A stretch of 64,000 nt of DNA from Alistipes sp. GTDB lineage: Bacteria; Bacteroidota; Bacteroidia; Bacteroidales; Rikenellaceae. The position numbers and the translations under genes were made by a program. Within the stretch, counting starts at the first letter, position 1; every line of letters starts with the position of its first letter. The stretch spans positions 27,785 to 91,784 of the forward strand of contig JAJQED010000001.1 in assembly GCA_021201825.1 (NCBI GenBank), given 5' to 3'. Positions 6,788 through 23,600 of this stretch are shown one piece after another. The notes under the pieces were generated by a model. That model did no database searches and was not told where the DNA came from. It saw only the letters and a program-made list of their open reading frames with translations.

Positions 6788-7813
6788 TTAGTCGAACAGC
6801 ACGCTCTCGCGGGCCGGAGGGGTGAAACCCAGGTGGCGGTAGGCCAATTCGGTGACTTCGCGCCCGCGCGGGGTGCGCTTGAGGAACCCCTCCTTGATCA
6901 GGAAAGGTTCGTAGACCTCTTCGATGGTGCCGCTGTCTTCACCCACGGCCGTGGCCACGGTGTTCAGGCCCACCGGTCCCCCGGAGAACTTCTGGATGAT
7001 GGTGGTCAGTATGCGGTTGTCCATCTGGTCGAGTCCCCGGGCATCGATGTTCAGGGCCGTGAGAGCCACACGGGTGATCTTCAGGTCTATATGTCCCTCG
7101 CCCTTGACCATCGCGAAGTCCCGGACCCGCCGCAGCAGGGCGTTGGCGATACGGGGCGTTCCCCGGCTTCGCATCGCTATCTCGAGGGTCGCATCCTCGT
7201 CGATCCCGATACCCAAAATCCCTGCCGAACGCCTCACGATACCCGCCAAAACGGGCGAATCGTAATACTCGAGGTGGCAGGTAATGCCGAACCGTGCGCG
7301 CAGCGGGCTGGTAAGCAGGCCGCTGCGGGTGGTGGCGCCTATCAGCGTGAACGGGTTCAGCTCCAGCTGGATAGACCGGGCCGACGGCCCCTTGTCCAGC
7401 ACGATGTCAATCTTGTAATCCTCCATCGCCGAATAGAGGTACTCCTCCACGATGGGGCTGAGCCGGTGGATCTCGTCGATGAAAAGCACGTCCCCCGGGT
7501 CGAGGTTGGTCAGCAGGCCTGCCAGGTCCCCGGGCTTGTCCAGTACCGGGCCGGACGAAACCTTGAGCGCCGTGCCCATTTCGTTGCTGATGATATTCGC
7601 CAGCGTGGTCTTCCCAAGGCCGGGAGGGCCGTGCAGCAGGACATGGTCGAGCGATTCGCCCCTCATCAGGGCCGCGCTGATAAATACCCGCAGGTTGTCG
7701 ACCGTTTTTTCCTGGCCGTTGAAACTGCCCAGTTCCTGCGGCCTGATCCGGTTCTCGAATTCCAGGTCGCTGCCCAGGTTGCGTATGTTGTTGCCCTCCG
7801 ACATCGCCCGCAA
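6788..7813 (-). CDS. ruvB: Holliday junction branch migration helicase RuvB
   Basis: 341 aa with Walker [12 protein letters not shown], Walker [10 protein letters not shown], and [15 protein letters not shown]. Confidence 0.95.
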
Positions 7814-7986
7814 AGTTACAAATTAACCGGGGTTTACCCTACGCCCCGCCGGGAATTATTGCGGGTAGGGGAAAACCGACCGCTGTATCATCCTATTCCA
7901 TTTCCTTATCTCCTGATTGAAAAAGAAAGTAGTGGAAGTGGACTGAAGAGCTATGACTGTCAGCGTTGCACCAAATAATACCGGTA

Positions 7987-8988
7987 TTATGATGATAATG
8001 GATTGGGTTTTACTCGCTTTTTCTTTCTGATGATCTTATTGTATAGCTTATACCGTTGCATCGCGATCAGATAAAGATCACCGCCCCGACTTTTAAGATA
8101 CTTCCGGAATTCCTTTATTTCCCGGCGGGCCTTAACAGGATCCGCTTCATGGAGTGTCCCGAACATTACGGTAATAAAGTCGTTCATTACCATGGCTACC
8201 CCGTATCCGATGTTCAGCCCTATAGCACTTTCATCCGTGGAATGCCTCTCGGTATAGAAGTCCACCAGTTTTTTACAAACGTATTTACAATCGTCGAAAT
8301 GTTTTACAAAGCCGGCAGCGCTTACACTCTGGCCCTCCCGTCCCAAATAATATTTGTAAACCACCAGGTCCAGGAATACAATAGTGCGGACATGGGCTAT
8401 CGGGCATAAAACGTATTCCATATCGCTGTAATAACAATGGCTCAATCGGAAACCGTCTTTGCGCAGAATTTCTGTTTTATAAGTCAGGGAATGCATCGAC
8501 AGTACAGGCCGGGATATCTTTTCCTGGATAAGGAACCGGCGGAAATCGTACGGCTTTTCGTATTCCACGAAATAATAGACCGGAACGGAACGCTCGTTCT
8601 TGACATATTCCTGAGAAAAATGAGTTATTATCAGGTCGGCCTCGTGATATTTCAGTTTACCGACATACTCGATAAAAGACTCCGTATCGAACCAGTCGTC
8701 GGCATCCAGTGTCTTGAAATATTTACCAAATGCCTGGTCTATGGCAAGGTTTATCGCGGAACCGTAACCCCCGTTCTCTTTGTCCAGTACCCTGACGGAA
8801 GCAGGATATCTTTTTTCATATTCCCGGGCGATTTCGAGCGAACCGTCGCGGCTCCCGTCATTTACTATCATTATTTCAATATCGTCCAGTACATGCGGGG
8901 AGAGGACCGAATCGACGCACCGCCGCAAATAGGACTCCATGTTATATGTGGCAATGGCGATCGACAATATTTTCCGCTCTCTGACCAT
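7987..8988 (-). CDS. family 2 glycosyltransferase
   Basis: 333 aa with LSIAIATYNMESYLRRCVDSV...IMIVNDGSRDGS...LDADDW (GT-A fold with a DxD). Confidence 0.8.
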   Translation of the reverse strand: MVRERKILSIAIATYNMESYLRRCVDSVLSPHVLDDIEIMIVNDGSRDGSLEIAREYEKRYPASVRVLDKENGGYGSAINLAIDQAFGKYFKTLDADDWFDTESFIEYVGKLKYHEADLIITHFSQEYVKNERSVPVYYFVEYEKPYDFRRFLIQEKISRPVLSMHSLTYKTEILRKDGFRLSHCYYSDMEYVLCPIAHVRTIVFLDLVVYKYYLGREGQSVSAAGFVKHFDDCKYVCKKLVDFYTERHSTDESAIGLNIGYGVAMVMNDFITVMFGTLHEADPVKARREIKEFRKYLKSRGGDLYLIAMQRYKLYNKIIRKKKRVKPNPLSS

Positions 8989-8990
8989 GT

Positions 8991-10010
8991 TTATCTTTTT
9001 GAGAACACCACCATTTGGGGGATTTCTTTATTGCCGGAACACAAAAAGATCCTCCGCCATCTATTGAATTTCTTTTTTTTGATTTTCTCTATCTGTACTC
9101 TGGTGCTGTCATACAGTTCCAAGTCCGTATTGATAAGCGTTTCGGCGAATTGTTCCATTTTTTCCCATATATATTTCCTGTCGGACCTGCAGTTTACGGT
9201 CAAAGTAAGGGAGATAGTAAACCCGATAAACGTAGATATATGGAATCGGATCTCCCTTGTCAGGCCGTTCACTTTACCTGCGTAATATCGGGAATAATGA
9301 TCGGTAAGGTTACGGCATACGGTTAGACGGCCCGCGAAATCTTTCCTGACATTCCCCGGCAGGACCGCAGTCTCTATCATCGAACTGCAAACCGGAGCAT
9401 TGATAAACGCCAAATTCCTTAGCTGTGCCAAAGGCAAAATCAAGTATTCCTGGACGGTATAATCTCCAGTACCGAAACTTACTTCCTTACTGCGTAATAA
9501 GTCCGTGCGGTATGTTATAGCGGGTAAAAAGAGGAAGTAGCCGCTCAGGTTTTCAATCCCGTCATCGGGAAGATCGTAGACCCGGTTGAAATATATCTTG
9601 AAATAGTTTATGGCAAACCGTTCGCCCGTTTCTTTATTTTCTTTTGTAAATTGATTCAATATAAGGTCCACTTCCAGCTCCCGTAGTCTGCGGGTGTATA
9701 CCATAAATGCAGTATCGTTTATCCGGTCTGGCGCTTCGAGTATTTTAAAGTATTTTCCCTTAGCTTCATTTACTGCCGTAACGAGTGCCTCGCCGAATTC
9801 ATAACCCCGGCCATCCAATACCCGGATAGATCCGGGATATCGGTTTCCCGCTCCAGAGATAACGGACCTGATGTAACTTTCATCGCCGCAAATCAGGATC
9901 TCTGTATCCTTTTCGATCTTTGCGCAGGATAGGGAGTCGAGACACCCACCAAGCCATTTGTGATGACGTACAGGGACGAAAATGGCCAGGGTCAATAATA
10001 TTCGATCCAT
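8991..10010 (-). CDS. divergent GT2-like protein, paralogous in layout to the neighbouring GT2
   Basis: 339 aa with a similar length and layout (LTLAIFVPVRHHKWLGGCLDSL..., ILEAPDRIND), but the DxD region is degenerate. It lies 2 nt upstream of the GT2 gene. Confidence 0.5.
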   Translation of the reverse strand: MDRILLTLAIFVPVRHHKWLGGCLDSLSCAKIEKDTEILICGDESYIRSVISGAGNRYPGSIRVLDGRGYEFGEALVTAVNEAKGKYFKILEAPDRINDTAFMVYTRRLRELEVDLILNQFTKENKETGERFAINYFKIYFNRVYDLPDDGIENLSGYFLFLPAITYRTDLLRSKEVSFGTGDYTVQEYLILPLAQLRNLAFINAPVCSSMIETAVLPGNVRKDFAGRLTVCRNLTDHYSRYYAGKVNGLTREIRFHISTFIGFTISLTLTVNCRSDRKYIWEKMEQFAETLINTDLELYDSTRVQIEKIKKKKFNRWRRIFLCSGNKEIPQMVVFSKR

Positions 10011-10033
10011 TCGTCTCGGGTCGTGGAAACATA

Positions 10034-11176
10034 TTATTTGAATTTCATGATCACAAGCACCGGGTTGTCCTCTTCATTTACATGTTCGAGTTTTTTCATA
10101 AGCTCGTCCGAAAAACGGCCCTCACGCCTTATCAGGTCCACCCTTGTGGCCGGGATCATATTCACGGCAATATTACCGGAAACATAATTGGGTATCGACT
10201 CCCGGGTTATCTGATGACGACGTCCTTTGATCTGGGAATCTATAATGTCCGGATGATAAACGATCTTTTCCTGTTTGTCATACACATAGTCCGTGGCATC
10301 GAAGTCGGTATCTTCCACCGATTTCATTTTCTTGATCGAAGAGGCGAAAATATACCTTTCGGTTTCTTTAGCCATAAAAAGGAAAACTTCGGGGTCCATA
10401 TCCGTTACGGAAGGTGTCCGGGTCAAAACGGGTTTTTTAATACCGTCGTAACCCAGGAAATAAGTAGTGTCGGAGGAGAATTCCATAATATAGCAGCCAC
10501 CGGGAGCCTGGGGTATACGGTCGGAATGTATACTACTCAGGCCTAATATCCTGCCGTCCGGCAGGTTGATTGTCGTATTTTTCCGGATTTTGATCTCGTA
10601 CGGGATGCCGATCTTAGAGACGACGCTTCCGTTCTCCTTGGATATTATCGTAAAGGGTTCTTGGTTTTGGTCGGCTTCACTGTACAATATTATATTATCA
10701 CCGAAATCGCCCATTGCGGAATACCGGGCCGAATCTAACGGAAACGACCTTTTGTATTCTCCCTCGGGATCATATACCAATATATTATTTTTCTGACCAT
10801 TCAAAACGAATAACTCTTCCTGGGTGTCGTCGCAAAACATATCGGTTACCGAAATGTATTCCTGCGGCCCGGGACCCTTGCGGTTAAAACTGCTGTAAGC
10901 CTTGCCGTTACGGGTAAACAGCTGAATATCACCGGTGTTCGGATTTCTGAAAGAGATATATTTTTCCCCTAAAGAATAAACATCACCCTGGACAAGAAAT
11001 CCTTTTTTTGTTTCCAGCGGCACATATTCAACGTCGGCGATATCTTGAATGGTAATGGTTTTAACTTTATAGGAGCCGGTCACGTTTATATTGGGCAGGT
11101 CGCCGGTTTGTTTTTCCCGGCAGCCGAAAAGGCATCCGGTAAGAAGCAGTGCCGATAGGAGAAGAAATTTTTTCAT
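10034..11176 (-). CDS. lipoprotein, probable 6-bladed beta-propeller (BF3164-like family)
   Basis: Signal peptide plus lipobox (MKKFLLLSALLLTGCLFGC). The repeated beta-rich segments include the RKGPGPQEY motif typical of this Bacteroidales family, as I recall it. Confidence 0.65.
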   Translation of the reverse strand: MKKFLLLSALLLTGCLFGCREKQTGDLPNINVTGSYKVKTITIQDIADVEYVPLETKKGFLVQGDVYSLGEKYISFRNPNTGDIQLFTRNGKAYSSFNRKGPGPQEYISVTDMFCDDTQEELFVLNGQKNNILVYDPEGEYKRSFPLDSARYSAMGDFGDNIILYSEADQNQEPFTIISKENGSVVSKIGIPYEIKIRKNTTINLPDGRILGLSSIHSDRIPQAPGGCYIMEFSSDTTYFLGYDGIKKPVLTRTPSVTDMDPEVFLFMAKETERYIFASSIKKMKSVEDTDFDATDYVYDKQEKIVYHPDIIDSQIKGRRHQITRESIPNYVSGNIAVNMIPATRVDLIRREGRFSDELMKKLEHVNEEDNPVLVIMKFK

Positions 11177-11192
11177 TGGATTAAGGTTAAAT

Positions 11193-12395
11193 TTAACTTA
11201 AGTTGCAAAGATCGGGTTTTTGTAAAACCAGCTCATAATTTGATATTGGAGGACACATCCATCTATATATACAATCACGGCAGGGCATCCTGTCCCGTAA
11301 CATCCTCCAGGAAGTTCCGGTTATGATCTCCTTATACAGAATATCGTACAGCGGGTCTTCGATCCGGCCCAAGGCCGGGTGGTTAACGTTGGCATGGACC
11401 GTGCCATCGGGTAATACTACCAATCTTCCGAAAAAATTGCTGTTCAAGGTCTGCCGGGCGAATATATCGCGTTTTGTTAATTTTGCATTCCGTAGATCAT
11501 CCTCCTCCACAAAAACGCATCTCCTAAAAAAATCGAGATTATTACCGGTAAAAAAAGGCCTTTTCTCTATGTTATAATTGTCGGATATCCGGGCCGCCTT
11601 TTCATAATCCCTTTCCGACCTGACCGGGATGATCCACTTAATATTCCCGATGTTTGTAATTTTCCGGGTATCATCCGGATACTCCGTTAAGACCGTAAAT
11701 AGTATATCATCGGCGATCATCGATCCAACCGTTGTAATATTCTTAAAGAAAGAATCCGCTCCGATTATGACCGTAACCGGAAGCGTGCTTTCCTGCTGGA
11801 TCCACTGCCGGAAGTCCGCGAATTCGGGATGGGAAAATATATCCCCCGCCAGGTTTACCATCCCCAAGTTCTCACTTCCTTTACAGTTATTTATGAATTC
11901 AGCGACTTTTCCAACGGACAGGTCGTCTTCCGATCGCATTGGGGAAAGTAATTGCTTATGATAATCGGGATGGACGGAGTTGTCCCCGTTGATATGTAAT
12001 GTTACTTCGTGCAAGTAGGAGATTATCTTGCCCGCTTGCTGCCTCGAGTGCATTTCCTGTATATCATCCACACCCTCGAGAAGTTTAAGTATGGGGGGGA
12101 GGGAGGCCGGCCGTGAGTCCGGACCGGTATTAGCCGTTAAATCTCCGGCCCCGATCGAAATTATATTGTCGATCCATTCCCTGATGTGCTCTTTCTCGAG
12201 ATCCGATCCATCGATCTTTACGGAATATAGATTGTCCGGCTCGGATAATTCCTTGTAAATGGTGGTAATATATTTATCGATGCCGAATGTAAAATAGCGG
12301 TTGTTCCCGGTATTATATATCAACCCCTTGTTTTGCCCGATCCAGAAAAAAGTATCACTATTCAGGTTCAGCCAGTATGAATGCGGTTTGATCAT
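11193..12395 (-). CDS. 'pseudo-rSAM' / SPASM-domain partner protein
   Basis: 400 aa with no CX3CX2C triad anywhere. The C-terminus has a SPASM-like CRDCIYRWMCPP. It overlaps the rSAM maturase stop by 4 nt (12392-12395). Confidence 0.65.
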   Translation of the reverse strand: MIKPHSYWLNLNSDTFFWIGQNKGLIYNTGNNRYFTFGIDKYITTIYKELSEPDNLYSVKIDGSDLEKEHIREWIDNIISIGAGDLTANTGPDSRPASLPPILKLLEGVDDIQEMHSRQQAGKIISYLHEVTLHINGDNSVHPDYHKQLLSPMRSEDDLSVGKVAEFINNCKGSENLGMVNLAGDIFSHPEFADFRQWIQQESTLPVTVIIGADSFFKNITTVGSMIADDILFTVLTEYPDDTRKITNIGNIKWIIPVRSERDYEKAARISDNYNIEKRPFFTGNNLDFFRRCVFVEEDDLRNAKLTKRDIFARQTLNSNFFGRLVVLPDGTVHANVNHPALGRIEDPLYDILYKEIITGTSWRMLRDRMPCRDCIYRWMCPPISNYELVLQKPDLCNLS

Positions 12396-13651
12396 ACCTT
12401 AAAAGTTGTTTCAACCAGGATACGTTTGTAAAAATGTGGTCTTCTTTTCAGGTTTTCCATGATTTCTTTGACGGCTTCGGTTTTTGATTGTGTCGTGATG
12501 AAACTGGGACAGTTAACATTATCATCCTTTACATTATCAATATGAAAAATACATACCGGACATAAAAACCCCGCATCACAAACACTGCACTGGCCGATAA
12601 ATTTTCTCAAATACCCGTTGAACAATTCAGCTATCTTCACACTGTCCAGATTTACTCCAGCCGAATCGACATTACCCATTGCGAAAACGTGGTCGATCTT
12701 TTCACAAGGTAGGATTTTGCCGTTAACACTAAGGAACATTTTTTTTGTAAAGGGAGTGCAGGTTACCGTTGGAATTACTCCTGTAACATTCCTATCATAC
12801 ATCAGATCGTTATAATCCCTAAAACCATTACCGGATTCGAAAACAACATATTTCCCCAATTCATAAACTTCGGGAGCTTCCAGGTATATATTTTCGATAA
12901 GTTGGCCGCAATTGTCTGTTTGCCGGATATCGTAGTGTTTGTTCTTATATGTACGGCGAAACTCCTCCCTTTTATCGGCCCTTATCCCACTTGGAGATAA
13001 AGTACCAATGGAAGGGGATTTTCCGAAAGTTCCATAAATATATTTATGGATTGACTCGACACTGTTTTTATTATGCAAAACGGAATTGAACCTCACATGC
13101 CTGTCGAAATATTCCGGATATTTTTCCCGTAACGCAAATATATTCGCCATTACACGGTCGTGAGAGTTATTTCCGGCATGGTCGACCCGGTGGCCGTTGC
13201 TCTCTCTGTCCCCGTCAAGGCTTATTAAAAGGTCGAACTGTTTCTCTACAAGATAGTCCATGGACCGGTCCAGAAGCATGGCATTTGTGGTCATTCCAAA
13301 TCTCAGGACCCGGGGAATATCCAGGTTCTGCATGTAATCGACGATCTCCCGGATGAGTGACAAATTAAGGAGAGGCTCGCCTCCGTAGAAACCAACGGCC
13401 AAGGGTCGTTGAAAAGACCGGTGGCCATTATTTTTCCAAAGACCGGCCAGATGATCGATCAATTTACGGGCAATATCGAAAGAAAGGAATTTACCCTGCC
13501 GCTCATCGTATCCCGTATAAAATTCCGAAAATGAACAATACCGGCAATTTAGGTTACACGCATCGGTTACCTCGAAAACAAGATTTTCCAGATGAAAGAT
13601 ATTATTTTCAATTGTAAATGGGTTTACATTTACCAGGTGTGTTTTGTTCAT
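12392..13651 (-). CDS. radical SAM / SPASM peptide maturase
   Basis: 419 aa. The CX3CX2C motif is TDACNLNCRYCSF. The C-terminal SPASM motif is GKILPCEK...CSVCDAGFLCPVC. It sits immediately downstream of a Cys-rich small ORF. Confidence 0.85.
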   Translation of the reverse strand: MNKTHLVNVNPFTIENNIFHLENLVFEVTDACNLNCRYCSFSEFYTGYDERQGKFLSFDIARKLIDHLAGLWKNNGHRSFQRPLAVGFYGGEPLLNLSLIREIVDYMQNLDIPRVLRFGMTTNAMLLDRSMDYLVEKQFDLLISLDGDRESNGHRVDHAGNNSHDRVMANIFALREKYPEYFDRHVRFNSVLHNKNSVESIHKYIYGTFGKSPSIGTLSPSGIRADKREEFRRTYKNKHYDIRQTDNCGQLIENIYLEAPEVYELGKYVVFESGNGFRDYNDLMYDRNVTGVIPTVTCTPFTKKMFLSVNGKILPCEKIDHVFAMGNVDSAGVNLDSVKIAELFNGYLRKFIGQCSVCDAGFLCPVCIFHIDNVKDDNVNCPSFITTQSKTEAVKEIMENLKRRPHFYKRILVETTFKV

Positions 13652-13675
13652 TTATTAGATTGGTAATAATTTCAC

Positions 13676-13748
13676 TTTATGGACCCGGGGAAGTCCATAA
13701 AATAAATTCGAAGCTTACAAAAGGTTACCGGCAATTGCCGGTAACCTT
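13676..13748 (-). terminator. two hairpins (terminator/attenuator) between the precursor and the maturase
   Basis: A 28-nt perfect palindrome aaggttaccggcaattgccggtaacctt (13721-13748) lies 5 nt after the precursor stop and is followed on the minus strand by TTTTGT. A second 9-bp hairpin pairs 13676-13684 with 13693-13701. Confidence 0.6.
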
Positions 13749-13753
13749 AATTT

Positions 13754-13991
13754 CTAATAACTCCCGCTTGTATTAGTTTGAGTGGAACCGCCGGCATCTG
13801 ATGTCCTTGAACTGAGTTCTCCTTCATCGACACATGCACAGACACATCCGCATTTACAATTACCCAACCTGCCCCGTCCATCTCCGTCACCCCCGCGTCC
13901 GTCCCGGCCTCCGACTATCATGGTTTTTTCCCTGTTGCTCAATTTCCTCTTTCGAAAGTTGAGCAAGGCTTAATTTCTGGATCTTTTTCAT
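13754..13991 (-). CDS. RiPP precursor peptide (GG leader plus Cys-rich core), apparently frameshifted at an A6 run
   Basis: ATG at 13991 gives MKKIQKLSLAQLSKEEIEQQGKNHDSRRPGRTRG*. The +1 frame continues (K)TMIVGGRDGRGGDGDGRGRLGNCKCGCVCACVDEGELSSRTSDAGGSTQTNTSGSY* to 13754. The two frames join at the A6 run (plus-strand T6 at 13924-13929). Confidence 0.6.
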
Positions 13992-14222
13992 TAGTTTGGA
14001 TTTAATAGTTAGTATTAATCGACCGCTTAATAAAGGGCGGTATCTGGTAAGTGTCTGGTTTAAATATTAGTAGTCCTTGCAATTTAGGGATACAGCTGTG
14101 CTATTGGATTTGTTTTGAGATGATACAGGAAATCGGATTAAGTTTGGGTTGTTATGGGTCGGGAATAAAAATATAAAACTTTATTCAAAAAACAAACATT
14201 GTGTCGGGTTTACTAAAGTAAT

Positions 14223-14822
14223 CTAAAGATTTTTATACAGGATGCCGTCGTCGAAATAAAGGCGGCGAAGCATTGCGCATGTTTCCGGGTCGACATTTTT
14301 ATCAGCAGCTATTCGGACCTGGCTGTCTTTCATCCCGAAAAGGTTCATTATAAATTGCCAGTCTGCAAGTGATTCATACTTCAGTATAATTGTAGAATTG
14401 TCGAAATAGCAGCTTTGCGGCAGGAACCACGGACGGGAATAATTCCTAAGGAATGAGTCCTGCACCCGGTAATTCTGGGCAAGAAGAAATTTACATATTT
14501 TGTTGGGGTCGTGGTCAAGGGAGGAAAAAACCTTATTCAGTTCCCCGTCCAAGCCGGCCCCCGTCTTTATTGCCGAAACGAACCTGTTATATGGATTGCG
14601 CACGAAAGTTATGAACTTATAATCCTTATAATCCGGAAAAAACCGTGGTATGGCCTTAATATGTATATGCGAGGTGTCCAGATTTGTTTCGGGGTTAGGC
14701 AATGACCAGTATAACGAAAAAGAGTAATTCGGGTGGTGCCGCTCGTATTCTTTTTGCAGAAAGGTGCCTCCGCATTTCGGATTATGCAGGTATATTGTTT
14801 TGGTCAGTTCGTGAACGATCAT
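14223..14822 (-). CDS. sulfotransferase (family-2-like, PAPS-dependent)
   Basis: 199 aa. The 5'-PSB loop is LHNPKCGGTF and the 3'-PB-like motif is FVRNPYNRFVSAI. Confidence 0.7.
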   Translation of the reverse strand: MIVHELTKTIYLHNPKCGGTFLQKEYERHHPNYSFSLYWSLPNPETNLDTSHIHIKAIPRFFPDYKDYKFITFVRNPYNRFVSAIKTGAGLDGELNKVFSSLDHDPNKICKFLLAQNYRVQDSFLRNYSRPWFLPQSCYFDNSTIILKYESLADWQFIMNLFGMKDSQVRIAADKNVDPETCAMLRRLYFDDGILYKNL

Positions 14823-14865
14823 GACAGGTTCGTTTTAAGCTTTTATTAATTACGGTATTAAAAAA

Positions 14866-15405
14866 CTACCGGGTATATATCGGAATGAAATATTTATCCT
14901 CCGTGACAAGGTAGATAAACTCCGGGGTACTGAAGAAACAGTGACCCTCTCCGGCGGTTGCGACCAAATTCTCGAACTGTGCTATCTCTTCACGGGAATG
15001 CTTGTCACATAGCCGGGCCAGAATACCCGTATGGCGGAAATAATTGTCGGAATAAAGCTCGTACAGAAATGAAATAAGGTATATCCGGTTCAGCGGCAGC
15101 ATCTGTTCGTATATCTCTTCGACAATGGAAAGGAATAACCCGAGGAACCGTTCCGTACGGAATTTGTTTAAATCGCACCGGTACATCTGGACAAGTATGT
15201 GGATAGCGGTAAATAGTTCGTTATCCGGAAAGAAAACCGTTGAGAGAGGCCGCATCTGTTCCGAAGATAGCTTTACTCCGGTACCGCCGGACAAAGCGTG
15301 GAACATATCCAGGTTGAGCAACAGGCTATGTTCCAGCCTTTTCTTTATGAGACTGTCCTCGGTGTAGGGTTTGGACCGATAACGTCGAATAAGGTACGTA
15401 CCCAA
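14866..15405 (-). CDS. hypothetical protein, possibly the C-terminal part of a frameshifted gene
   Basis: 179-aa ORF with a TTG start. It overlaps the upstream ORF by 61 nt in another frame. No motif recognised. Confidence 0.4.
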   Translation of the reverse strand: MGTYLIRRYRSKPYTEDSLIKKRLEHSLLLNLDMFHALSGGTGVKLSSEQMRPLSTVFFPDNELFTAIHILVQMYRCDLNKFRTERFLGLFLSIVEEIYEQMLPLNRIYLISFLYELYSDNYFRHTGILARLCDKHSREEIAQFENLVATAGEGHCFFSTPEFIYLVTEDKYFIPIYTR

Positions 15406-15779
15406 GACGACAAAATATTTATACCGTATGTATTATAGGTTAAAACTTCCCGAACCGTATTATCGAAATCCTCAAGAATAAAGTCAATGTCTCCGTCGAT
15501 AAATCGCTGTTCCCAGAGATATTGCAAACCCCAACCGATTCCTGGAATCCCGGTAGAGAACGGCAAGGAAAATTTTTTGAATTGAAAGCCGATAATGTCC
15601 TCTAAAAGTTCTCCGGCCTGTTCTTCCAGTTGTGAGGAGTTTGTTTGCCGGGACAGGCAGTATAGCACAAGGGCACTTCCTGTCAGGCCGTCTTTCAATC
15701 CCGGGTTAATATCGGGTTTTTTCGACCTGATAGCTGCGGCCCGCTCGAGCAGGATGTCCGTGGGTGTTTGTTTTATCAT
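15345..15779 (-). CDS. hypothetical protein with weak LanC-like Gly-rich helix-repeat signatures
   Basis: 144 aa. GLKDGLTGSALVLYCL and TGIPGIGWGLQYLW are reminiscent of alpha-toroid LanC repeats. The similarity is not verifiable here. Confidence 0.4.
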   Translation of the reverse strand: MIKQTPTDILLERAAAIRSKKPDINPGLKDGLTGSALVLYCLSRQTNSSQLEEQAGELLEDIIGFQFKKFSLPFSTGIPGIGWGLQYLWEQRFIDGDIDFILEDFDNTVREVLTYNTYGINILSSWVRTLFDVIGPNPTPRTVS

Positions 15780-15830
15780 CGTTTATATTTCATGGGTTAA
15801 GCAGTGCATTAAAGTAAGGAGATCGGGGAC

Positions 15831-18800
15831 CTAATTCAAAGGCTTATTTTTTCTTTCCATCGGCAGGAATACGGGGAGGAATATAACGAGCGATACCAGC
15901 GAGAAGAGCATCCCGCTGATCCCGCCCATCGCGAACGAGTACCAGAAGACGTCCGACGGTCCGTAATAGATAAACGGCAGCAGTCCCACAACGGTAGAGG
16001 TGACTGTCAGCAAAATTGGTATGATCTTCCGGTTATAGGAGGTCAAAAAGATGCGCAGTCCCGAGATATTTTTACCCGTGCGTTCGATTATGCTGTACTC
16101 GTTTACGATGTAAATTCCGGCGTTGACCACCAGTCCGCACAGCAGTATAAAAGACGCGAATCCGCCCTGGTCGAACGGTATGCCGGCCATTCCGAACGTT
16201 AAGAACGCTCCGATAAATGATACGGGGATCATCAAAAGTATCACGAGCGGTTTGCGGAGGGACTCGAAAATAATGGCGCAGAGGAAATAGAAAATAAATA
16301 CCAGGATCCAGGCGGGAGTCGCGGCCTCGCTCAAATCCCATTCGAAATCGGTACTTTCCGCACGGTAACCGATAGGGAGGGTTTCCGTGTTCAATCTCTC
16401 GAGGGTCCGGCGCATAAGTCTTCTTCCCAGCTCGCCGTCCCCTATAAAGTCGAAACCGACAAATAGCTGGTAGGACTGGTTGAGCTTGTGAATATCGATG
16501 CCCGTGTTACGCTTATCGATATCGGCGAAAGAAGAGAGCTTCACTTCCATGGAATCAACCGGGAGCGGGTTGTTTTTAATGTTCCACAGGTCGAATTCCT
16601 CCCTGAGGGACGACGCCAGGATTACTTTTTCCTGCCTGCCGTCTATGAATACCGGGGATAGTTCCGTGGAAAAAAGCAACTGGCGCAGGTAGCTGAAATA
16701 GCCATTCAGGTCAATACCTTTTTCGACCGCTACCGTTTTATCGATCCCGATAAAATATTCCTGTTCCGGGACTGCCCACTCCATTTGGCCGTATATCTGC
16801 GGTTCGAATACGCGCATATTGCCCGAGAGACTGTCGGCCAAATCTTCGGCATATTTCATGAGCAGGTCGAAATTGGGCCCCGTGAGCTTTATTCTCCTGG
16901 ATTTGAGCCCGCTGAAAACCGAGTTGTTGAACCTTTGGTCATCTATCCCGGTTACGCTCCAGGTGGCTCCCCCGTTCATGATGGCCATGCCGATGACTTC
17001 GCCCTTGATCCGGGACGGCAGTTCCGTATTGTCGTACTCGTCCTTGAAAGTGACCTGGATGGATGCGTTCTTATGGGACAGGACACTGGTCCGGAACATA
17101 TCGATCTCGTCGTACCCGGCCAGGAAATTCTCCATGTTCCGGACCAGTTCGTCGAGTTGGTGGACGGTACATCCCTCCGGCATACCTGCCCGGATGGAGA
17201 GGGTCGGTTTCCCCGGCTCGCGGTAGATGCCCGACTTGGCAACCGTAGTGTGGAAGACCCTGAAAGAACCTCCCAGGATCTTCTCGAAAGTTTCTTTTTT
17301 GGATTGGTAGAACGGGGAGCCGACTGTCTTGTTATAGAATTGCACCCACTTCTTTTCCTGCCCCGACGAGATCCGGTTTGGCAGCATGTGGATGGGGATT
17401 CCGAACGCAAGTATCAATATTACCACGTAAAGCCATCGCCGCTTCCTGCTCCATGAAATAAATCCGGCATATGCCCGGTTGAACCTGACGATACGCCTTT
17501 TTGTCCCGGGCTTTATATTTACCATCCCCACCGCTGCCGGCAATTTATCCAACAGAGAGGGAATGAAGAGCAATGAAATAAAAAGGGAAACGACCAGGTT
17601 GACTATTATTACGACCGCGAAATCCAGCAGGTTTTCTTTTTGCTCTTCCGGCAGCAGGAATATAACGCAAAGGGCAGCTATGGTGCTCATCAGTGCACCC
17701 AGGATCGCCGGGAATACCCTCTTGTCGCGATAATAAGCGTAATGGTCCGTCATTATGATGGAGGTGTCTATTATCAGCCCGAGCGAAACGGTGATCCCGG
17801 CCAGGGTATATATATGTATAGGCAGGTCGAGGAGTTTATAAAAAATGAAAGCGACAAGTATATTGGCCACAAGGGTCAGGAAAATTATCAGCAGGTAGCG
17901 CAGGTTGCGGTTGGCCGCAAAAACAACGGCAAGCAAAATCAGGAGGGTGGCGATCGTCCTCAGCCCGATCCTTGATAGTTCTTCGGTAACGTACTCCGAC
18001 GAATCGTATGTCAGCATAAGGGAGGTCTCGGCCGGGAACACTTCCCGCAGTTGGTCCATCTGCCGGCGTACCTCCGCTGCCACTTTAATCAGGTTGCTTT
18101 GCCTCCCGGCAAAAATATTAAGGTTTACGGCATTGAGCCCGTTAATGCGGTAATAGGAATCCGGTAGGGTTTCGCGGTAATCGATCGTGGCTATATCCCT
18201 GAGGTGGATTATCCTGCCGCCGACCAGTTTGATGGGTATCTCCCCGAAATCCCCGCGAAGATCTGCGGATAATTTCACGGGCACCGTCAAATCTTCACCC
18301 TCAGTATAAACATTCCCGGCGGTTCCCTCCCGGGAGATGTCATTGAAAGCGGTGGCTATCTCTTCTGCCGTGATGCCGTAAACGCGGGTCTTTTCGGGAT
18401 CGAAGCTGATTATGTATTCATAAGGTGTTATGCCGTAAGTCTGTATATCGTTTATACCGTTGATCATGGACAGGGCCGGGATCACGTGTTTTTCAATATA
18501 CTCCCCGACCTCCCGGGAGGGAAGCCGCGAGTTTATGGTATACGACATTATCGGACTCTCTTCCAATCCGGCGACTCCGAGCGAAAGGGCGGGGTATGAA
18601 ACCCCGTCGGGCAGTGACGGGTAAACGGAACGTATCTGTGAGGAGACCTCGAAACGGGCCACGTCCATCTTCGTCCCTTTCTTGAATTCCACCCGGATCT
18701 CCCCGGAGCCTTTACGGGAAACAGACGAGATTTCACTTATGCCGCCTACCCGGGACAGCACCCCCTCGAGCTTCGAGGTCACTTCCTGTTCGATAAGCCT

Positions 18801-18965
18801 CGAAGAGACGTCAGGCCAGTTGTAGGTGACATTTATGGTATTGGAACTTTTATCCGGGGTATACTGTATATTGAACAGGGGGATCATAGCTGCGCCAATT
18901 ATCATCAGCACCACCATGACCAGTATTACCGAAAACGACGACATCCCGTGCCGCGGATTTTCCAT
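15831..18965 (-). CDS. RND efflux permease (AcrB/HAE family)
   Basis: 1044 aa with a 12-TM layout and two large periplasmic loops, paralogous to the adjacent permease. Confidence 0.9.
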   Translation of the reverse strand: MENPRHGMSSFSVILVMVVLMIIGAAMIPLFNIQYTPDKSSNTINVTYNWPDVSSRLIEQEVTSKLEGVLSRVGGISEISSVSRKGSGEIRVEFKKGTKMDVARFEVSSQIRSVYPSLPDGVSYPALSLGVAGLEESPIMSYTINSRLPSREVGEYIEKHVIPALSMINGINDIQTYGITPYEYIISFDPEKTRVYGITAEEIATAFNDISREGTAGNVYTEGEDLTVPVKLSADLRGDFGEIPIKLVGGRIIHLRDIATIDYRETLPDSYYRINGLNAVNLNIFAGRQSNLIKVAAEVRRQMDQLREVFPAETSLMLTYDSSEYVTEELSRIGLRTIATLLILLAVVFAANRNLRYLLIIFLTLVANILVAFIFYKLLDLPIHIYTLAGITVSLGLIIDTSIIMTDHYAYYRDKRVFPAILGALMSTIAALCVIFLLPEEQKENLLDFAVVIIVNLVVSLFISLLFIPSLLDKLPAAVGMVNIKPGTKRRIVRFNRAYAGFISWSRKRRWLYVVILILAFGIPIHMLPNRISSGQEKKWVQFYNKTVGSPFYQSKKETFEKILGGSFRVFHTTVAKSGIYREPGKPTLSIRAGMPEGCTVHQLDELVRNMENFLAGYDEIDMFRTSVLSHKNASIQVTFKDEYDNTELPSRIKGEVIGMAIMNGGATWSVTGIDDQRFNNSVFSGLKSRRIKLTGPNFDLLMKYAEDLADSLSGNMRVFEPQIYGQMEWAVPEQEYFIGIDKTVAVEKGIDLNGYFSYLRQLLFSTELSPVFIDGRQEKVILASSLREEFDLWNIKNNPLPVDSMEVKLSSFADIDKRNTGIDIHKLNQSYQLFVGFDFIGDGELGRRLMRRTLERLNTETLPIGYRAESTDFEWDLSEAATPAWILVFIFYFLCAIIFESLRKPLVILLMIPVSFIGAFLTFGMAGIPFDQGGFASFILLCGLVVNAGIYIVNEYSIIERTGKNISGLRIFLTSYNRKIIPILLTVTSTVVGLLPFIYYGPSDVFWYSFAMGGISGMLFSLVSLVIFLPVFLPMERKNKPLN

Positions 18966-18968
18966 ACC

Positions 18969-21900
18969 CTACCTGTTCTTGTGAATTATATAATAAAATA
19001 TCGGTACGAAGAATATGCTGACAAATGTCCCGACTGCCATACCCGTAATGACCGCAACCGAGAGGGGATACTGCAGGTCGGAACCCATTTCCCCCCTTGC
19101 CAGGAAGGGGGTGATGGCAAGGATGGTGGTCAGCGAGGTCATGATTATCGGTTTCAACCTGCGCTGGCCGGCCTCCATGATAGCCCTTTTCAGCGATCTG
19201 CCGCTTCGGCGCAGTTTATTGATGGTGTCCACCTTGAGTATGGAGTCGTTTATCACGATCCCGCATGTTACCACTATACCGATAATGGACATAATATTTA
19301 ACGACAGCCCCAGTATCCACAACACCAGCAGTATCCCGAAGATGTCGATCACCATCTCGGACAGTATGATAAAGGGTTGCACGACGGATTCGAACTGCGC
19401 CGCAAGGATGAAATAGAGCAGCAGTACAGCTACCCCGAGCACCATGATAAGCTCCCACATTATCACGCGGTTGCTGAAATATCCTCCGCTGAAGCTAACT
19501 TCGAAATCGTCGTTGTGTGATATCGCCTCCCGTATCCGTTCCATTACCCCGGGAACATCCCGTTCGGGTATGTCCAACTCCAACGGATAGAAATTTCCTT
19601 CGGGTCCCGCCGTTATGTATTTAAGGTCCTGTCCGCGTGTTTGCCGCATGAATATGGATACCGGCAGGTAGGTGCCGTTCTTGCGGATGGTCGCTCCCCC
19701 GACTATCTCCGCCAGCCCGCTTTTGTTGTCCCCGACGATGACCGGGAGGTAAAAGCGTCCCTGGATTATGGTAAACAACTGGTTCTCGTTGAGGGAATTT
19801 CGCAGGACGTTCAACAATTCGCCGTAAGTTACTCCATACAGGGACATGATCTCGGGGCGGGTTACGTAGAGTATGTGTTCCTGCCATGACGGCATGTCGA
19901 TTTGCACTTCGGGCAGGTGTTCCGACAGGGAGACTATTGCGCCGTTCAGTTGGTTCGGATCCGGTGCCTTGCCGGAAGTGGGGCGCAGGCGGGCTACAAG
20001 CGGGGCCTCGTTGCTGCCGAAAACCATGTCGAATATATTGCCGGAAAGCTCGAACCCGTAGGAGGCCAGCGGATAACGGGCGTCCAGATATTCCGATACT
20101 GCCGCTTCGATGTCGCCGATGGTATAGCCGTCTTGCTCTTTAACGTAGACCACCGCCTCCGATGTGCCCATCCGCCGGGTATGGTCCAGCATGAATTGCT
20201 GTATACCCGCCATGGTCGTGGTTTGCGAAGTCATGTCGTCGATCTGCCCCATGAGCAGCCCCAGCCGCCGGTCGTTCTCTTCCACCGTGATGCGTTCGTT
20301 CCAGTCTATATTGACCAGCATGTCCCGGTATGTTATTTCGGGTAGACGGTCTTTCCCGATCTGGGAAAAAAGCAAAATGCTCCCCGCCACCGATACCGGG
20401 AAATAGAGCCACATGATCCAACGACGCCGGAAGAAAAATTTAAGGGTCCGGTCGTAGGAGGGGATCAATCTGTCGAACGATATTTTTTGCAGGAAGCGGT
20501 TACCCGATATCCCGTCCTGTCTGCGGAACATTAGGAAATAGTAGACCGGGATCACGGTAACGGTCACCCCGAGCGAACAAAACAGTGTGATGGCGACCGA
20601 AAGGGCCTGGTCGTAAAACAGCATCCCGGCAATGCCGCTAAGGAAAATCAGGGGTAAAAATACGGCACAGGTCGTAAGTACCGAACTGAGCATCGGGAAG
20701 AATACCTCGCCGGTCCCTTTCACAACTGCCTGTCGCAGGCTGTATCCGTTGCTCCAACGGTAGGTGATATTGTCGATCACTATTATGGAGTTGTCGACCA
20801 TCATGCCCACACCCAGGATCAACCCCGACAACGACACTATGTTGATCGATATTCCGAACAGGTAAAAGAATAGCATCGAGCAGATCAATGCTACGGGCAT
20901 CGTCAACACGATCAATAGCGCTGAACGCAGGTTCTGCATGAACAGCAGGATAATGAGGCTCGCCAGTATGACGCCGAATATTATGTTGCGCGTCAGGTTG
21001 TTGATCGAATAATCCAGCAGTTCCGTCTGGTCGCGGGTGAGGGTGAACTCTATGTCGGGGTAATCCTCCGAGAAGCTTTCCATCAGCCGGAAAATATTCT
21101 TTTTAAGGCGGGCCATCTTTGCCTCCGACTGTTTGATCACGGCCAGTGATACGGCCATCTTACCGTCGGAAGTGACGATATTGCTTCGCCGCCGGGGATG
21201 CTCGATAACCGTTGCCAGTTCCCCGATCCGGTAGATACGTCCCGAGACATTAATATAGGCCTGCTCGATATCCTCTTTCCCGGTCGCCGCGCTTTCCACC
21301 TTGACGTTATACTGGTATTCCCCGTCCCGTATCGTAAGGTTGCCCATCCCGAAGTTGACCGCGCTCACCGCATTCTCGAACTCCCCGATCGAGAGGTCTA
21401 TCTCATGGAGTTTGTTCCGGTCCGGGATTATCAGTATCTCGGGAACCACATACCCGGAAAGGTCGACCATGGCCACTTCCGGCAGCTGTTCTATCCGCTT
21501 GACGATAACATGGGAAGCGAAACTGCTTAGCTGTGAGAAACGCTCGGAGACGGGAAAGATCCCTTCGCCAGCTGCCGGCGCCGTATCGTTCCTTACCGAG
21601 AGGTTGATATAAAACGCCGGAATGTCTGTCGCCCCGGCCTTGAGTACCGTCGGCCGGAGCATGTCGCGCGGCAGGGAATTCATCGAACGGTCGATCTTTT
21701 CGTTCACCTCGACGAACAGGTAGTCCGAGTTGACCCCGTGGTCAAAAGAGAGGGTGATGGTCCCGCTGCCGTCTTTGGTCTCGGACCGGATATCCCTGAG
21801 TCCCGATAGCTGCAATAGCTGCTGGCGCAACTGTGCCATGACCGACTCATCCAATTCGCGGGCGGAGTGCGACGGATAGGATACCTGAACGCTGATATAC

Positions 21901-22022
21901 GGAATGTCCACCGAGGGTATCAGCGAGACCGGAAGCATATTAACGCTCACGATACCGAGCACAACCACCATGATCAGGGACATGGTTACGGCGATGGGCC
22001 TGTCTATGAGCTTGTTCAGCAT
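18969..22022 (-). CDS. RND efflux permease (AcrB/HAE family)
   Basis: 1017 aa. It starts MLNKLIDRPIAVTM, has GVGMMVDNSIIVIDN, and ends with a typical C-terminal TM bundle. Confidence 0.9.
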   Translation of the reverse strand: MLNKLIDRPIAVTMSLIMVVVLGIVSVNMLPVSLIPSVDIPYISVQVSYPSHSARELDESVMAQLRQQLLQLSGLRDIRSETKDGSGTITLSFDHGVNSDYLFVEVNEKIDRSMNSLPRDMLRPTVLKAGATDIPAFYINLSVRNDTAPAAGEGIFPVSERFSQLSSFASHVIVKRIEQLPEVAMVDLSGYVVPEILIIPDRNKLHEIDLSIGEFENAVSAVNFGMGNLTIRDGEYQYNVKVESAATGKEDIEQAYINVSGRIYRIGELATVIEHPRRRSNIVTSDGKMAVSLAVIKQSEAKMARLKKNIFRLMESFSEDYPDIEFTLTRDQTELLDYSINNLTRNIIFGVILASLIILLFMQNLRSALLIVLTMPVALICSMLFFYLFGISINIVSLSGLILGVGMMVDNSIIVIDNITYRWSNGYSLRQAVVKGTGEVFFPMLSSVLTTCAVFLPLIFLSGIAGMLFYDQALSVAITLFCSLGVTVTVIPVYYFLMFRRQDGISGNRFLQKISFDRLIPSYDRTLKFFFRRRWIMWLYFPVSVAGSILLFSQIGKDRLPEITYRDMLVNIDWNERITVEENDRRLGLLMGQIDDMTSQTTTMAGIQQFMLDHTRRMGTSEAVVYVKEQDGYTIGDIEAAVSEYLDARYPLASYGFELSGNIFDMVFGSNEAPLVARLRPTSGKAPDPNQLNGAIVSLSEHLPEVQIDMPSWQEHILYVTRPEIMSLYGVTYGELLNVLRNSLNENQLFTIIQGRFYLPVIVGDNKSGLAEIVGGATIRKNGTYLPVSIFMRQTRGQDLKYITAGPEGNFYPLELDIPERDVPGVMERIREAISHNDDFEVSFSGGYFSNRVIMWELIMVLGVAVLLLYFILAAQFESVVQPFIILSEMVIDIFGILLVLWILGLSLNIMSIIGIVVTCGIVINDSILKVDTINKLRRSGRSLKRAIMEAGQRRLKPIIMTSLTTILAITPFLARGEMGSDLQYPLSVAVITGMAVGTFVSIFFVPIFYYIIHKNR

Positions 22023-22031
22023 GACGTTGCG

Positions 22032-23102
22032 CTATTCGGCCGGTTGAACCGGTGACCCGTCGGCCAGGTTGAGGTTGCCCGAGACGATGATCCGGTCTCC
22101 CGCCTGCAGGTCGGCGCCCCGGGAAGTGTTGGCGGTAACCACATAAGAATCGCTGTTCTCCATCACCGTATGCACATAGGTCCATACAGCCCGGCCGTTG
22201 TCGTAGCGGAAAAGCACCTCCAGGTTGTTCCGTATCACCACCGCATTTTTCGGGACCACAAGCTGCCCGGGGACACTGTTCTCGACCAGCACTTTGACGT
22301 TCATCCCGTCCATAAATCCACGCGGAACATTATGTATACGGGCCTTGACGGCTATCTGTCCCCGGTCGTCTATGGTAGGGTTGATGCTCGTAACGGTGCC
22401 GGTTCCTCGTTTTTCCGGTTCGAAAAAAGGAATGACGGTAATTCTCTGTCCTACTTTCACGAAACCCAGTTCGCTCTCCGTAACCGTGAAATCCACATCC
22501 ATCTCCGAATCGTCTATAACGGTACAGAGCTCGGCCTCGGTTTTTTCGAAAGGCTTGCTTTTCAGGTTGGCGACCTTGCCGGAGAAAGGGGCGCGGATCG
22601 TGCAGTTGGCCAGGTTGAGCCGTGCCTGTTCGAGGTTGGCCACCGCCATGTTATAACCGGACCGGGTCTTTACCGTCGCACGCGATTCCTCGGCCAGAAG
22701 AGACGTATCCGGCCTCTCGAGCCCGAATCCTATTACGGCGTCCGCAAGGTCGATCCGTGCCTGCTCCATGTTGATCGTTGCGGTATTGAGCTGGTTGACC
22801 GCCGTTTGCGTATCCAGAACGGCCAGTATCTCCCCTGCCTGCACCTGCTGTCCGTTCTCTACCGGAATACTTGCGATCATCCCTTCGGTCGGGTATCCGA
22901 TCACGCTCTTACGGCGGGCGCTCAGTTTGCCGTTGCTTAACATCTGGCGGTGGAAAGAAGTTTCGGCGAGGGTCATTATTTCCACTATATTCGACTCCTG
23001 GATATGTTCCTGTCTGGCCATTTCGGCCGTTTCCGTATTCCCTTTACTTCGGCACGAACAAAAAACGAGCGCGGCCAGGACCGGTAGCAGATATATTTTC
23101 AT
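22032..23102 (-). CDS. RND efflux periplasmic adaptor (MFP/HlyD family) lipoprotein
   Basis: The start at 23102 gives MKIYLLPVLAALVFCSC (lipobox). It has coiled-coil hairpin and beta-barrel segments and IRAPFSGKV. Confidence 0.85.
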   Translation of the reverse strand: MKIYLLPVLAALVFCSCRSKGNTETAEMARQEHIQESNIVEIMTLAETSFHRQMLSNGKLSARRKSVIGYPTEGMIASIPVENGQQVQAGEILAVLDTQTAVNQLNTATINMEQARIDLADAVIGFGLERPDTSLLAEESRATVKTRSGYNMAVANLEQARLNLANCTIRAPFSGKVANLKSKPFEKTEAELCTVIDDSEMDVDFTVTESELGFVKVGQRITVIPFFEPEKRGTGTVTSINPTIDDRGQIAVKARIHNVPRGFMDGMNVKVLVENSVPGQLVVPKNAVVIRNNLEVLFRYDNGRAVWTYVHTVMENSDSYVVTANTSRGADLQAGDRIIVSGNLNLADGSPVQPAE

Positions 23103-23600
23103 AAAAGACAGATTATCGGGTTCACGGGTACCGCCGGCCGGCCGGATGAAATATACCGGTTCCAATTCGGCGTGCCGGAGCTGTTCAGGCAGGGCAGGGT
23201 CGTTCTTTCAGGGTGTCGTATCGCCGGGAATTTCGACCCCGTTTGATCCATGTATACCCTGGAGTGTAGAAATACTTCCCACCGTTCACCGGCTGGCAAT
23301 ATTGTAATGGTAAAAATTTTCATTTCCAGGGTTTGTGGATTTAGGAAAAACAGGGTCGTAAAGCCAAAAATAAGAATTATTATTTTAATGCTTCCATAAT
23401 GCCGGAAATTATTAGGCATCAAACCTATCCCTGCTGAACCCCGTGAGCAGGTTGCTTTTTATTTTCGCGAGGGAACAGGTCGGAATAAACGCAAACGAAA
23501 TTTCGGCAATAAGGCCCATACAGCCAGGCCCCGGGCGGACTGCTAATTCGAACAAGTCGAAGAACTGATCTTCGGAGGGTGTAAAGTTCTTTAAGTACGG

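Follow-up and report, generated by a model that had tools for sequence, protein, structure and literature searches.

Sulfation is among the rarest modifications of peptides that are made by ribosomes and then modified post-translationally (RiPPs): the literature searched gives RaxX, a few methanobactins, conopeptides and two Streptomyces lanthipeptides. Here we describe a locus at positions 7987-15779 of a 64-kb stretch of DNA (64,000 nucleotides, hereafter the window) from a metagenome-assembled genome (MAG) of Alistipes sp. (NCBI). In this locus a gene for a sulfotransferase of the type that uses 3'-phosphoadenosine-5'-phosphosulfate (PAPS) stands among genes for a radical S-adenosylmethionine (rSAM) peptide maturase, its pseudo-rSAM partner, a GG-leader precursor, a LanC-like protein and family-2 glycosyltransferases (GT2). 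The locus is of the TIGR04148/04149/04150 'GG-Bacteroidales' rSAM-SPASM RiPP type, for which the literature searched contains no experimental chemistry. We lean, though only somewhat, towards reading it as a horizontally acquired RiPP island for a cysteine-crosslinked, glycosylated peptide with a sulfated sugar, made by way of a portable tailoring cassette, in a pathway that is likely silent here.

The closest described systems are those of the same TIGR04148/04149/04150 type, including the gene clusters BGC3-5 of PMC10352776, which combine rSAM, pseudo-rSAM and LanC-like genes, with or without GlyS. They share with the window a coupled rSAM and partner above the cut-offs, a GG leader and a CxCxC core, and a LanC-like protein lacking zinc ligands, GT2 genes and a DUF5128 lipoprotein are also common to the family. 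The window differs in that it adds the sulfotransferase, lies in Rikenellaceae and has a precursor with an extra Gly/Arg/Asp-rich linker and a frameshift. The Bacteroidales survey of PMC10352776 counted 263 areas with rSAM and LanC-like genes and 41 areas with rSAM, LanC-like and GlyS genes, and reported pseudo-rSAM partners; it never mentions a sulfotransferase and gives Rikenellaceae with rSAM-only areas only.

Dedicated PAPS-type sulfotransferases in a RiPP locus are known from the sulfonated class II lanthipeptides (ssl/ssc; LanM with SslST and CysCDN; PMC11143521), and the likeness extends to sulfate-activation genes, which stand beside the sulfotransferase in related cassettes (L091-L093). 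The ssl/ssc systems differ in their Streptomyces host, the LanM core enzyme and Tyr sulfation shown experimentally, and they have neither a LanC-like adaptor nor a glycosyltransferase. In PMC11143521, a search for co-occurrence with LanB and further lanthipeptide synthetases yielded no sulfotransferase, in contrast to locus L003 described below, which pairs LanB/LanC with a sulfotransferase of the same short clade as that of the window. RaxX and RaxST of Xanthomonas likewise combine a ribosomal peptide, a dedicated sulfotransferase and GG-type leader processing on leaving the cell, but RaxX is linear and Tyr-sulfated, and its system has a peptidase-containing ABC transporter, no rSAM and no glycosylation. 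The ranthipeptide and sactipeptide maturases CteB, PapB, RumMC and CcpM share the rSAM core, a seven-Cys SPASM domain and Cys-rich substrates, whereas the window rSAM scores far below their cut-offs, has no extension resembling a RiPP recognition element (RRE) and has an obligatory pseudo-rSAM partner. Glycocins (SunS/ThuS-type) also encode a GT2 in a bacteriocin-like locus with a GG leader; the window enzymes, in contrast, have no detectable sequence link to solved peptide glycosyltransferases, and glycosylation is here a prediction. Sulfated sugars in glycocins are not reported in the literature searched.

A GG-Bacteroidales rSAM island in Alistipes

All long open reading frames (ORFs) at 7987-15779 lie on the minus strand in a tightly packed block, with intergenic gaps of 2-51 nt except for 231 nt before and 102 nt after the precursor. 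The island has a GC content of 44% overall (0.40-0.47 across the block) in an Alistipes genome of 55-60% GC, and the flanks, which encode ruvB, mgsA and ung, have 0.55-0.61. Along the direction of transcription the order is LanC-like, sulfotransferase, precursor, rSAM, partner, DUF5128 lipoprotein, GT2b and GT2a. The features, beginning with the genes directly upstream, are as follows.

15831-23165, minus strand: membrane-fusion protein (MFP) and two resistance-nodulation-division (RND) pump genes, immediately upstream of the block; a tentative exporter
14866-15779, minus strand: LanC-like gene, frameshifted at a T4 run (15412-15415); N-terminal ORF 16.7 bits on LANC_like
14223-14822, minus strand: short-clade (about 200 aa) Sulfotransfer_2-type sulfotransferase; PF03567 24.9 bits (cut-off 22)
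13754-13991, minus strand: TIGR04149-type precursor gene, frameshifted at an A6 run (13924-13929)
13671-13748, minus strand: a pair of stable hairpins separating the precursor stop from the rSAM start; minimum free energy (MFE) -42.9 kcal/mol, z -5.85
12392-13651, minus strand: radical SAM/SPASM peptide maturase; TIGR04148 459.9 bits (cut-off 300)
11193-12395, minus strand: pseudo-rSAM partner; TIGR04150 311.5 bits (cut-off 250)
10034-11176, minus strand: DUF5128 six-bladed beta-propeller lipoprotein; lipobox LTGC, PF17170 72 bits
8991-10010, minus strand: GT2b, a paralogue of GT2a in which EAP replaces the DXD (DAD) motif; PF00535 20.4 bits (threshold 23.3)
7987-8988, minus strand: GT2a glycosyltransferase with an intact DAD motif; PF00535 102 bits

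An earlier note on this DNA, made from the sequence alone, had described a tightly packed, AT-richer block with all genes on one strand, and every gene that it listed is present; it missed the frameshifted LanC-like gene. The motifs that it quoted (CNLNCRYC, CSVCDAGFLCPVC, CRDCIYRWMCPP, PKCGGT and RNPYNRFVS) occur in the translations, and the numbers TIGR04148-04150 that it gave are correct. Both the rSAM and its partner pass the respective curated cut-offs. Neither LanB nor LanM is encoded in the island.

The rSAM and partner genes overlap by 4 nt (12392-12395). The CX3CX2C motif of the rSAM comprises C32, C36 and C39, and seven invariant SPASM cysteines follow at its C terminus. We rejected an identity as an anaerobic sulfatase maturase, which the earlier note had named as the alternative, because TIGR03942 gives 67.9 bits against a cut-off of 349 and ranks eleventh, far behind the 459.9 bits of TIGR04148. 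The models of characterised thioether maturases also stay below their cut-offs (CcpM 194/500, RumMC 128/720, PapB 101/340 and SCIFF 87/425 bits); the closest solved relative of the rSAM profile is CteB (5wgg). The rSAM begins directly at the cluster motif without an N-terminal RRE-like extension, whereas in the partner some 130 residues precede the equivalent position. There the partner reads DNSVHPDY instead of CX3CX2C; towards its C terminus, C372, C375, C381 and C397 are conserved without exception across 69 sequences. About half of the partners beside TIGR04148 genes (35 of 68 from other loci, namely L029, L034-L036, L039, L040, L043, L045 and others), however, have CX3CX2C intact at about residue 135-150, so that the 'pseudo' label fails across the family. 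Judged from these motifs, some TIGR04148/04150 systems may contain two active rSAM enzymes.

The TIGR04148-type rSAM family has 2,166 cluster representatives at E <= 1e-30, the nearest of which is only 50% identical to the window rSAM. Scanning a single genome of each species yielded at least 583 rSAM loci, of which the best 80 were analysed with 10-kb flanks by comparing the window proteins with them by tblastn at 1e-5, a search that can miss divergent genes. The partner was adjacent in 79 of these 80 loci. A LanC-like gene was detected in 23 by tblastn and in 29 with a hidden Markov model (HMM), DUF5128 within 10 kb in 21, GT2 in 12, RND in three and the sulfotransferase in none. In several rSAM loci lacking a sulfotransferase, GT2 lies directly 3' of the partner or is fused to a LanC-like domain (487-633 aa). 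The Parabacteroides locus L013 contains LanC-like, GT2, DUF5128, two precursors, rSAM, partner and MFP-RND-RND, that is, the window set minus the sulfotransferase; its MFP-RND-RND genes (36-39% identity) directly follow the rSAM pair. The link to the RND exporter is nevertheless weak, because only three of the 80 loci have any RND match.

The earlier note had counted two GT2 genes. GT2a is a clear member of the family, whereas GT2b falls below the PF00535 threshold, although it is evidently a paralogue of GT2a (26% identity over 305 aa, E 2e-30). With its DXD motif replaced, GT2b is possibly a non-catalytic partner.

The sulfotransferase and its LanC-like companion

The PAPS-type sulfotransferase predicted by the earlier note held up, in that the Pfam match is above threshold, both PAPS loops are present and the predicted fold is that of a sulfotransferase. 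The 5'-phosphosulfate-binding (5'-PSB) and 3'-phosphate-binding (3'-PB) loops, LHNPKCGGT and RNPYNRFVS, vary little or not at all among 34 relatives. The structural model has a predicted local distance difference test (pLDDT) score of 88.5, and its top fold matches in the PDB are all sulfotransferases, led by the heparan-sulfate NDST1 domain (probability 0.97-0.98, template-modelling (TM) score 0.41-0.50) and a 6-O-sulfotransferase; StaL, the sulfotransferase of a glycopeptide-antibiotic aglycone, is also among them. A search of PDB sequences with the sulfotransferase profile returned nothing. On motifs and model, the window protein is a credible PAPS-type enzyme.

The sulfotransferase family is small, with 93 representatives at E <= 1e-3 among 1.84 billion and nine at E <= 1e-30. 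The alignment separates a clade of about 200 aa, which includes the window protein, from a clade of 232-259 aa with a 45-residue insert. A LanC-like gene adjoins the sulfotransferase in 11 of the 11 short-clade loci with enough flanking sequence, and also in L147, whereas it is found in none of the 23 loci of the 232-259-aa clade and none of 26 distant loci. A glycosyltransferase stands beside the sulfotransferase in nearly every context seen.

Two of the short-clade contexts contain a core RiPP machinery. L006 (50% identity) encodes an rSAM (TIGR04148, 507 bits) and a partner (TIGR04150, 389 bits) together with a GT4, a sulfotransferase and a LanC-like protein. L003-L005 (42% identity) encode LanB N- and C-domains, LanC, an S41 peptidase, GT2, a sulfotransferase, LanC-like proteins and a C39-ABC transporter; the part of L003 that is visible showed no precursor. 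At L003:12396-12581 a fragment of a group II intron reverse transcriptase (RVT_N) lies between the LanC-like gene adjacent to the sulfotransferase and a second LanC-like gene. L007-L010 (49% identity) have a GT2-LanC-like fusion, a sulfotransferase and a LanC-like gene. In L091-L093 (45-47%), CysD, CysN (622.7 bits), one or two sulfotransferases, LanC-like, a GT2 of 616-619 aa and a second LanC-like gene occur together, and in some contigs the short-clade sulfotransferase directly follows CysD/CysN. L147 (39% identity) has LanC-like, sulfotransferase and GT2 in the same gene order as the window.

Beyond these loci the contexts vary. The 232-aa relative P0032 belongs to a capsule locus of Parabacteroides that also encodes Wzz, Poly_export, other sulfotransferases and several glycosyltransferases. 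The capsule locus of the 232-aa relative (L143/L144) contains three or four more sulfotransferases of other Pfam families, with DnaB-like helicase and DnaG-like primase genes interleaved with them. The relative P0007 is an orphan. Relatives of about 200 aa at 29-38% identity stand beside GT2 or Branch-type glycosyltransferases, and one beside collagen-like and leucine-rich repeat (LRR) genes. In that last case (L154:2670-5026), the distant 199-aa relative overlaps collagen-repeat and LRR_5 proteins in an operon-like string, unlike the other contexts.

For the LanC-like gene we built a profile HMM from six LanC-like proteins beside sulfotransferase homologues. Against 15860-14801, its positions 24-122 matched frame 1 with 79.6 bits, and its positions 121-280 matched frame 3 with 44.7 bits. 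Because the two halves of the profile match across the frame junction, the 144-aa and 179-aa ORFs are taken as one gene of about 304 aa. NCBI annotation covers only the 179-aa piece, as a hypothetical protein, and the N-terminal ORF gives sub-threshold matches to LANC_like (16.7 against 23.2 bits) and LanKC/LanL. The repaired protein has four Cys, no CH motif and no Zn-ligand motif, which leaves it outside the LanC cyclases; Bacteroidales LanC-like proteins likewise lack Zn ligands (PMC10352776). A whole-database search with the repaired protein was uninformative, as it returned only the self-match and one weak match. With no Zn site, an occasional fusion to GT2 and a place next to the sulfotransferase in every case, the LanC-like protein is most readily taken as a putative adaptor that would bring the peptide to the tailoring enzymes. 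Each catalytic gene of the island has a degenerate companion: the rSAM has the pseudo-rSAM, GT2a has GT2b lacking DXD, and the sulfotransferase has the Zn-less LanC-like protein.

A frameshifted precursor and LanC-like gene

The small Cys-rich precursor reported by the earlier note has its GG leader and Cys core, but not as one intact ORF. The leader start at ATG 13991 opens MKKIQKLSLAQLSKEEIEQQGK in one frame, whereas TMIVGG and the Cys-rich core (stop at 13754) lie in the +1 frame. As encoded, the ORF from this ATG reads MKKIQKLSLAQLSKEEIEQQGKNHDSRRPGRTRG and then stops; the GG site and core (EKTMIVGGRDGRGGDGDGRGRLGNCKCGCVCACVDEGELSSRTSDAGGSTQTNTSGSY) are in the +1 frame relative to the leader, and the two frames meet at GGAAAAAACC in the A6 run. 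With A5 instead, a 78-aa peptide is encoded: MKKIQKLSLAQLSKEEIEQQGKTMIVGG / RDGRGGDGDGRGRLGNCKCGCVCACVDEGELSSRTSDAGGSTQTNTSGSY. The leader half alone gives 20.8 bits on TIGR04149 positions 1-20 (its first 20 residues), and the repaired 78-aa peptide gives 22.6 bits (E 7.5e-5), just below the cut-off of 25; the 70-aa TTG ORF as encoded (start 13966) has no TIGR04149 match. Among 47 precursors beside related rSAM genes, the common leader pattern is MKKLxKLKLxxLSKxELxxxEMNxLxGG, and the cores of 45 carry a CxCxC cluster with a Gly/Ser/Thr/Asn-rich tail behind it. Both the leader and the core (CKCGCVCAC) of the repaired window peptide conform to this pattern; unusual in it are a 16-residue Gly/Arg/Asp linker and five cysteines. 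A regular-expression scan of the 64-kb window found no other precursor copies. At L061:6998-7108, in another family locus, an additional precursor copy truncated to 36 aa, MKNLKLNKLNRISEEMKNAVKGGEAPCCSCRMLLRQ, is found close to an intact one and suggests that precursors decay in other family loci too.

In the LanC-like gene the frames join at ATTTTG, within the T4 run, and adding a fifth T yields GINIFVVLGTYLIRRY, a sequence that the profile aligns with. The precursor carries a one-base insertion (A6 where A5 is needed) and the LanC-like gene a one-base deletion (T4 where T5 is needed). That these are sequencing or assembly errors in an intact locus might be thought of, as the window comes from a MAG and both indels are in homopolymers. 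We rejected assembly error as highly improbable, as two Logan assemblies agree: contig L001 (SRR15221321) is 100% identical over 17,652 bp (17.6 kb) and covers both sites, and contig L002 (SRR15221362) has three single-nucleotide differences, no gaps and the same A6 run. The A6 run is therefore reproduced in two assemblies and the T4 run in one (L001), and no other gene of the block is disrupted.

The simplest reading of both indels is that they are fixed inactivating mutations, and the pathway in this Alistipes lineage is most likely silent or decaying. With both the precursor and the LanC-like gene frameshifted, the product is probably not made in this strain. Alternatively, the A6 and T4 homopolymers could act as a switch, in which slippage, whether in replication, transcription or translation, brings the genes back into frame in part of the population or at a low rate, so that a costly or toxic peptide is kept under contingency control. 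Both indels fall in homopolymer runs and affect the two small genes without a catalytic role, with some 6 kb of enzyme genes remaining intact, and a +1 slip of tRNA-Lys from AAA to AAA would, as read from the sequence, re-pair perfectly. On the other hand, runs of six and four bases are generally short for efficient slippage, no stimulatory RNA structure lies 3' of the A6 run (z -0.59), an unremarkable AAC codon follows the slip site, the run length is the same in two samples, and there are no relatives close enough to check the conservation of the site. We consider such a switch improbable as a whole, and programmed frameshifting was set aside on these grounds except as this low-probability rival.

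Proposed product and alternative explanations

Under the reading that we prefer, a sulfated glycopeptide made by a horizontally acquired island, the rSAM/pseudo-rSAM pair would bind the GG-leader precursor with its CKCGCVCAC core, and the partner, with its extra N-terminal stretch of about 130 aa, probably provides recognition of the leader. The SPASM rSAM would then cross-link the cysteines, most likely as thioethers by analogy with the CteB-, CcpM- and RumMC-type maturases. GT2a, perhaps with GT2b, would glycosylate the Ser/Thr-rich tail, and the sulfotransferase with the LanC-like adaptor would sulfate the sugar using PAPS. The RND pump may export the product; no protease that would cut after GG was found nearby among the ten large ORFs scanned. 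We think it a little better than even that the sulfotransferase, LanC-like and glycosyltransferase genes form a portable cassette, which is also found in a second TIGR04148/04150 locus (L006) and in a class I lanthipeptide locus (L003). More tentatively, and with some doubt, we propose that a mobile cassette, consisting of a short sulfotransferase, an obligatory LanC-like protein, a glycosyltransferase and, on some contigs, CysD/CysN, combines with RiPP machineries of unrelated kinds in Bacteroidota (rSAM/pseudo-rSAM or LanB/LanC) to yield peptides with sulfated sugars, the Zn-less LanC-like protein recruiting the peptide for the glycosyltransferase and the sulfotransferase.

The earlier note had proposed a cross-linked, O-sulfated peptide. 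The RiPP context stands, and the closest sulfotransferase relatives are in RiPP loci, but a sugar carried by the peptide is a likelier sulfate acceptor than a hydroxyl of the peptide itself. The sugar is favoured because of the glycosyltransferase company, the capsule-locus relatives in the wider family and the heparan-sulfate-like fold matches, and because the sulfotransferase is tied to a LanC-like partner and glycosyltransferases while the wider family is glycan-associated. The enzyme could instead O-sulfate a peptide side chain directly, either the C-terminal Tyr or a tail Ser/Thr, as RaxST and SslST do, with the GT2 genes acting independently. In its favour, Tyr is the target of the known RiPP sulfotransferases (PMC11143521), the core has ten Ser/Thr and ...SGSY at its end, and StaL is among the fold matches. 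We regard direct peptide sulfation as unlikely, since a glycosyltransferase is present in nearly every context and the wider family lies in capsule or glycosylation loci; moreover, the window enzyme is a Sulfotransfer_2, unlike the other sulfotransferases of L143 (Sulfotransfer_1/3), and GSY/GSF tails are also found in sulfotransferase-free loci (L089 and L090).

Another explanation would make the rSAM trio a mere neighbour: the target of the GT2, sulfotransferase and LanC-like proteins would then be something other than a peptide, for example a surface glycan or lipid. The earlier note had set its own reading against a polysaccharide locus to which the sulfotransferase and GT2 genes would belong, never syntenic with the rSAM pair in related genomes. 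The sulfotransferase is indeed no regular companion of this rSAM family, being absent from all 80 related rSAM loci; still, neither it nor the GT2 genes lie in a polysaccharide locus here, and the cassette recurs with core enzymes of two RiPP classes. Its relatives in capsule loci, the polysaccharide enzymes that are the closest solved relatives of GT2a and the possible relation of Bacteroidales LanC-like proteins to carbohydrate-active enzymes (PMC10352776) also fit a non-peptide target. Against it, the island has no flippase, polymerase, chain-length or initiating-transferase gene (no Wzx, Wzy, Wzz or initiating transferase was found), the cassette recurs with two different RiPP core machineries, LanC-like genes are present in 29 of the 80 rSAM loci with GT2-LanC-like fusions directly after the partner, and the 232-259-aa clade that includes the capsule-locus relative has no LanC-like partner (0/23). 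We therefore hold a non-peptide target to be decidedly improbable.

Several observations nevertheless count against a sulfated glycopeptide. With no sulfotransferase among the 80 sampled rSAM loci, the link of this gene to the TIGR04148 family rests on two lineages, and several cassette contexts are on contigs of 2-6 kb, which break off before a core RiPP enzyme is reached. In PDB matches up to E = 10, the closest solved relatives of GT2a are GT-A enzymes of the polysaccharide or teichoic-acid type, and no homology to solved peptide glycosyltransferases (SunS-type) was detectable to E = 10. The E-values of the sulfotransferase fold search are weak (best about 2e-3). No leader peptidase or C39-ABC exporter was found among the ten large window ORFs scanned. 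All the large enzyme genes are intact, which is odd for a decaying locus. Finally, cross-link type, glycosylation and sulfate acceptor are all predicted.

Other features of the window

The terminator hairpins that the earlier note had placed after the precursor were recovered as two strong hairpins in the 102-nt spacer 3' of the precursor; none of 200 shuffles folded as well as this spacer, which includes a 12-bp stem at 13721-13748. They are likely an attenuator or partial terminator between the precursor and the rSAM. No riboswitch or known RNA was found in 7800-24000, and a sigma-70 promoter scan, with a consensus unsuited to Bacteroidota, gave no enrichment over shuffles.

Just upstream of the MFP/RND genes, at 23671-24219 on the minus strand, a 182-aa cupin with a borderline match to cysteine dioxygenase type I (23.4 bits) lies in DNA of lowered GC. 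A second low-GC stretch (0.37-0.45) at 28000-48000 resembles a mobile defence island, with a tyrosine integrase (28506-29885), a type I restriction-modification specificity subunit (40201-41376), DUF4917 (41389-42681), a 1075-aa ORF (42669-45896) and AbiH (45905-46999).

Significance

The Alistipes copy needs two single-base repairs before expression. For experiments, L006 (ERR13998660) is a better target than the window, as its biosynthetic genes are all intact, although its precursor is off-contig. If the cassette reading, which we hold tentatively, is true, a sulfated sugar would be new among the RiPP modifications reported. In gut Bacteroidales the TIGR04148 family is very large (more than 2,000 cluster representatives) and has no characterised product. 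The sulfotransferase clade described here predicts a sulfated glyco-RiPP from gut and termite-gut Bacteroidota, and the proposed adaptor function offers a candidate role for the Zn-less LanC-like proteins found in hundreds of Bacteroidales clusters.

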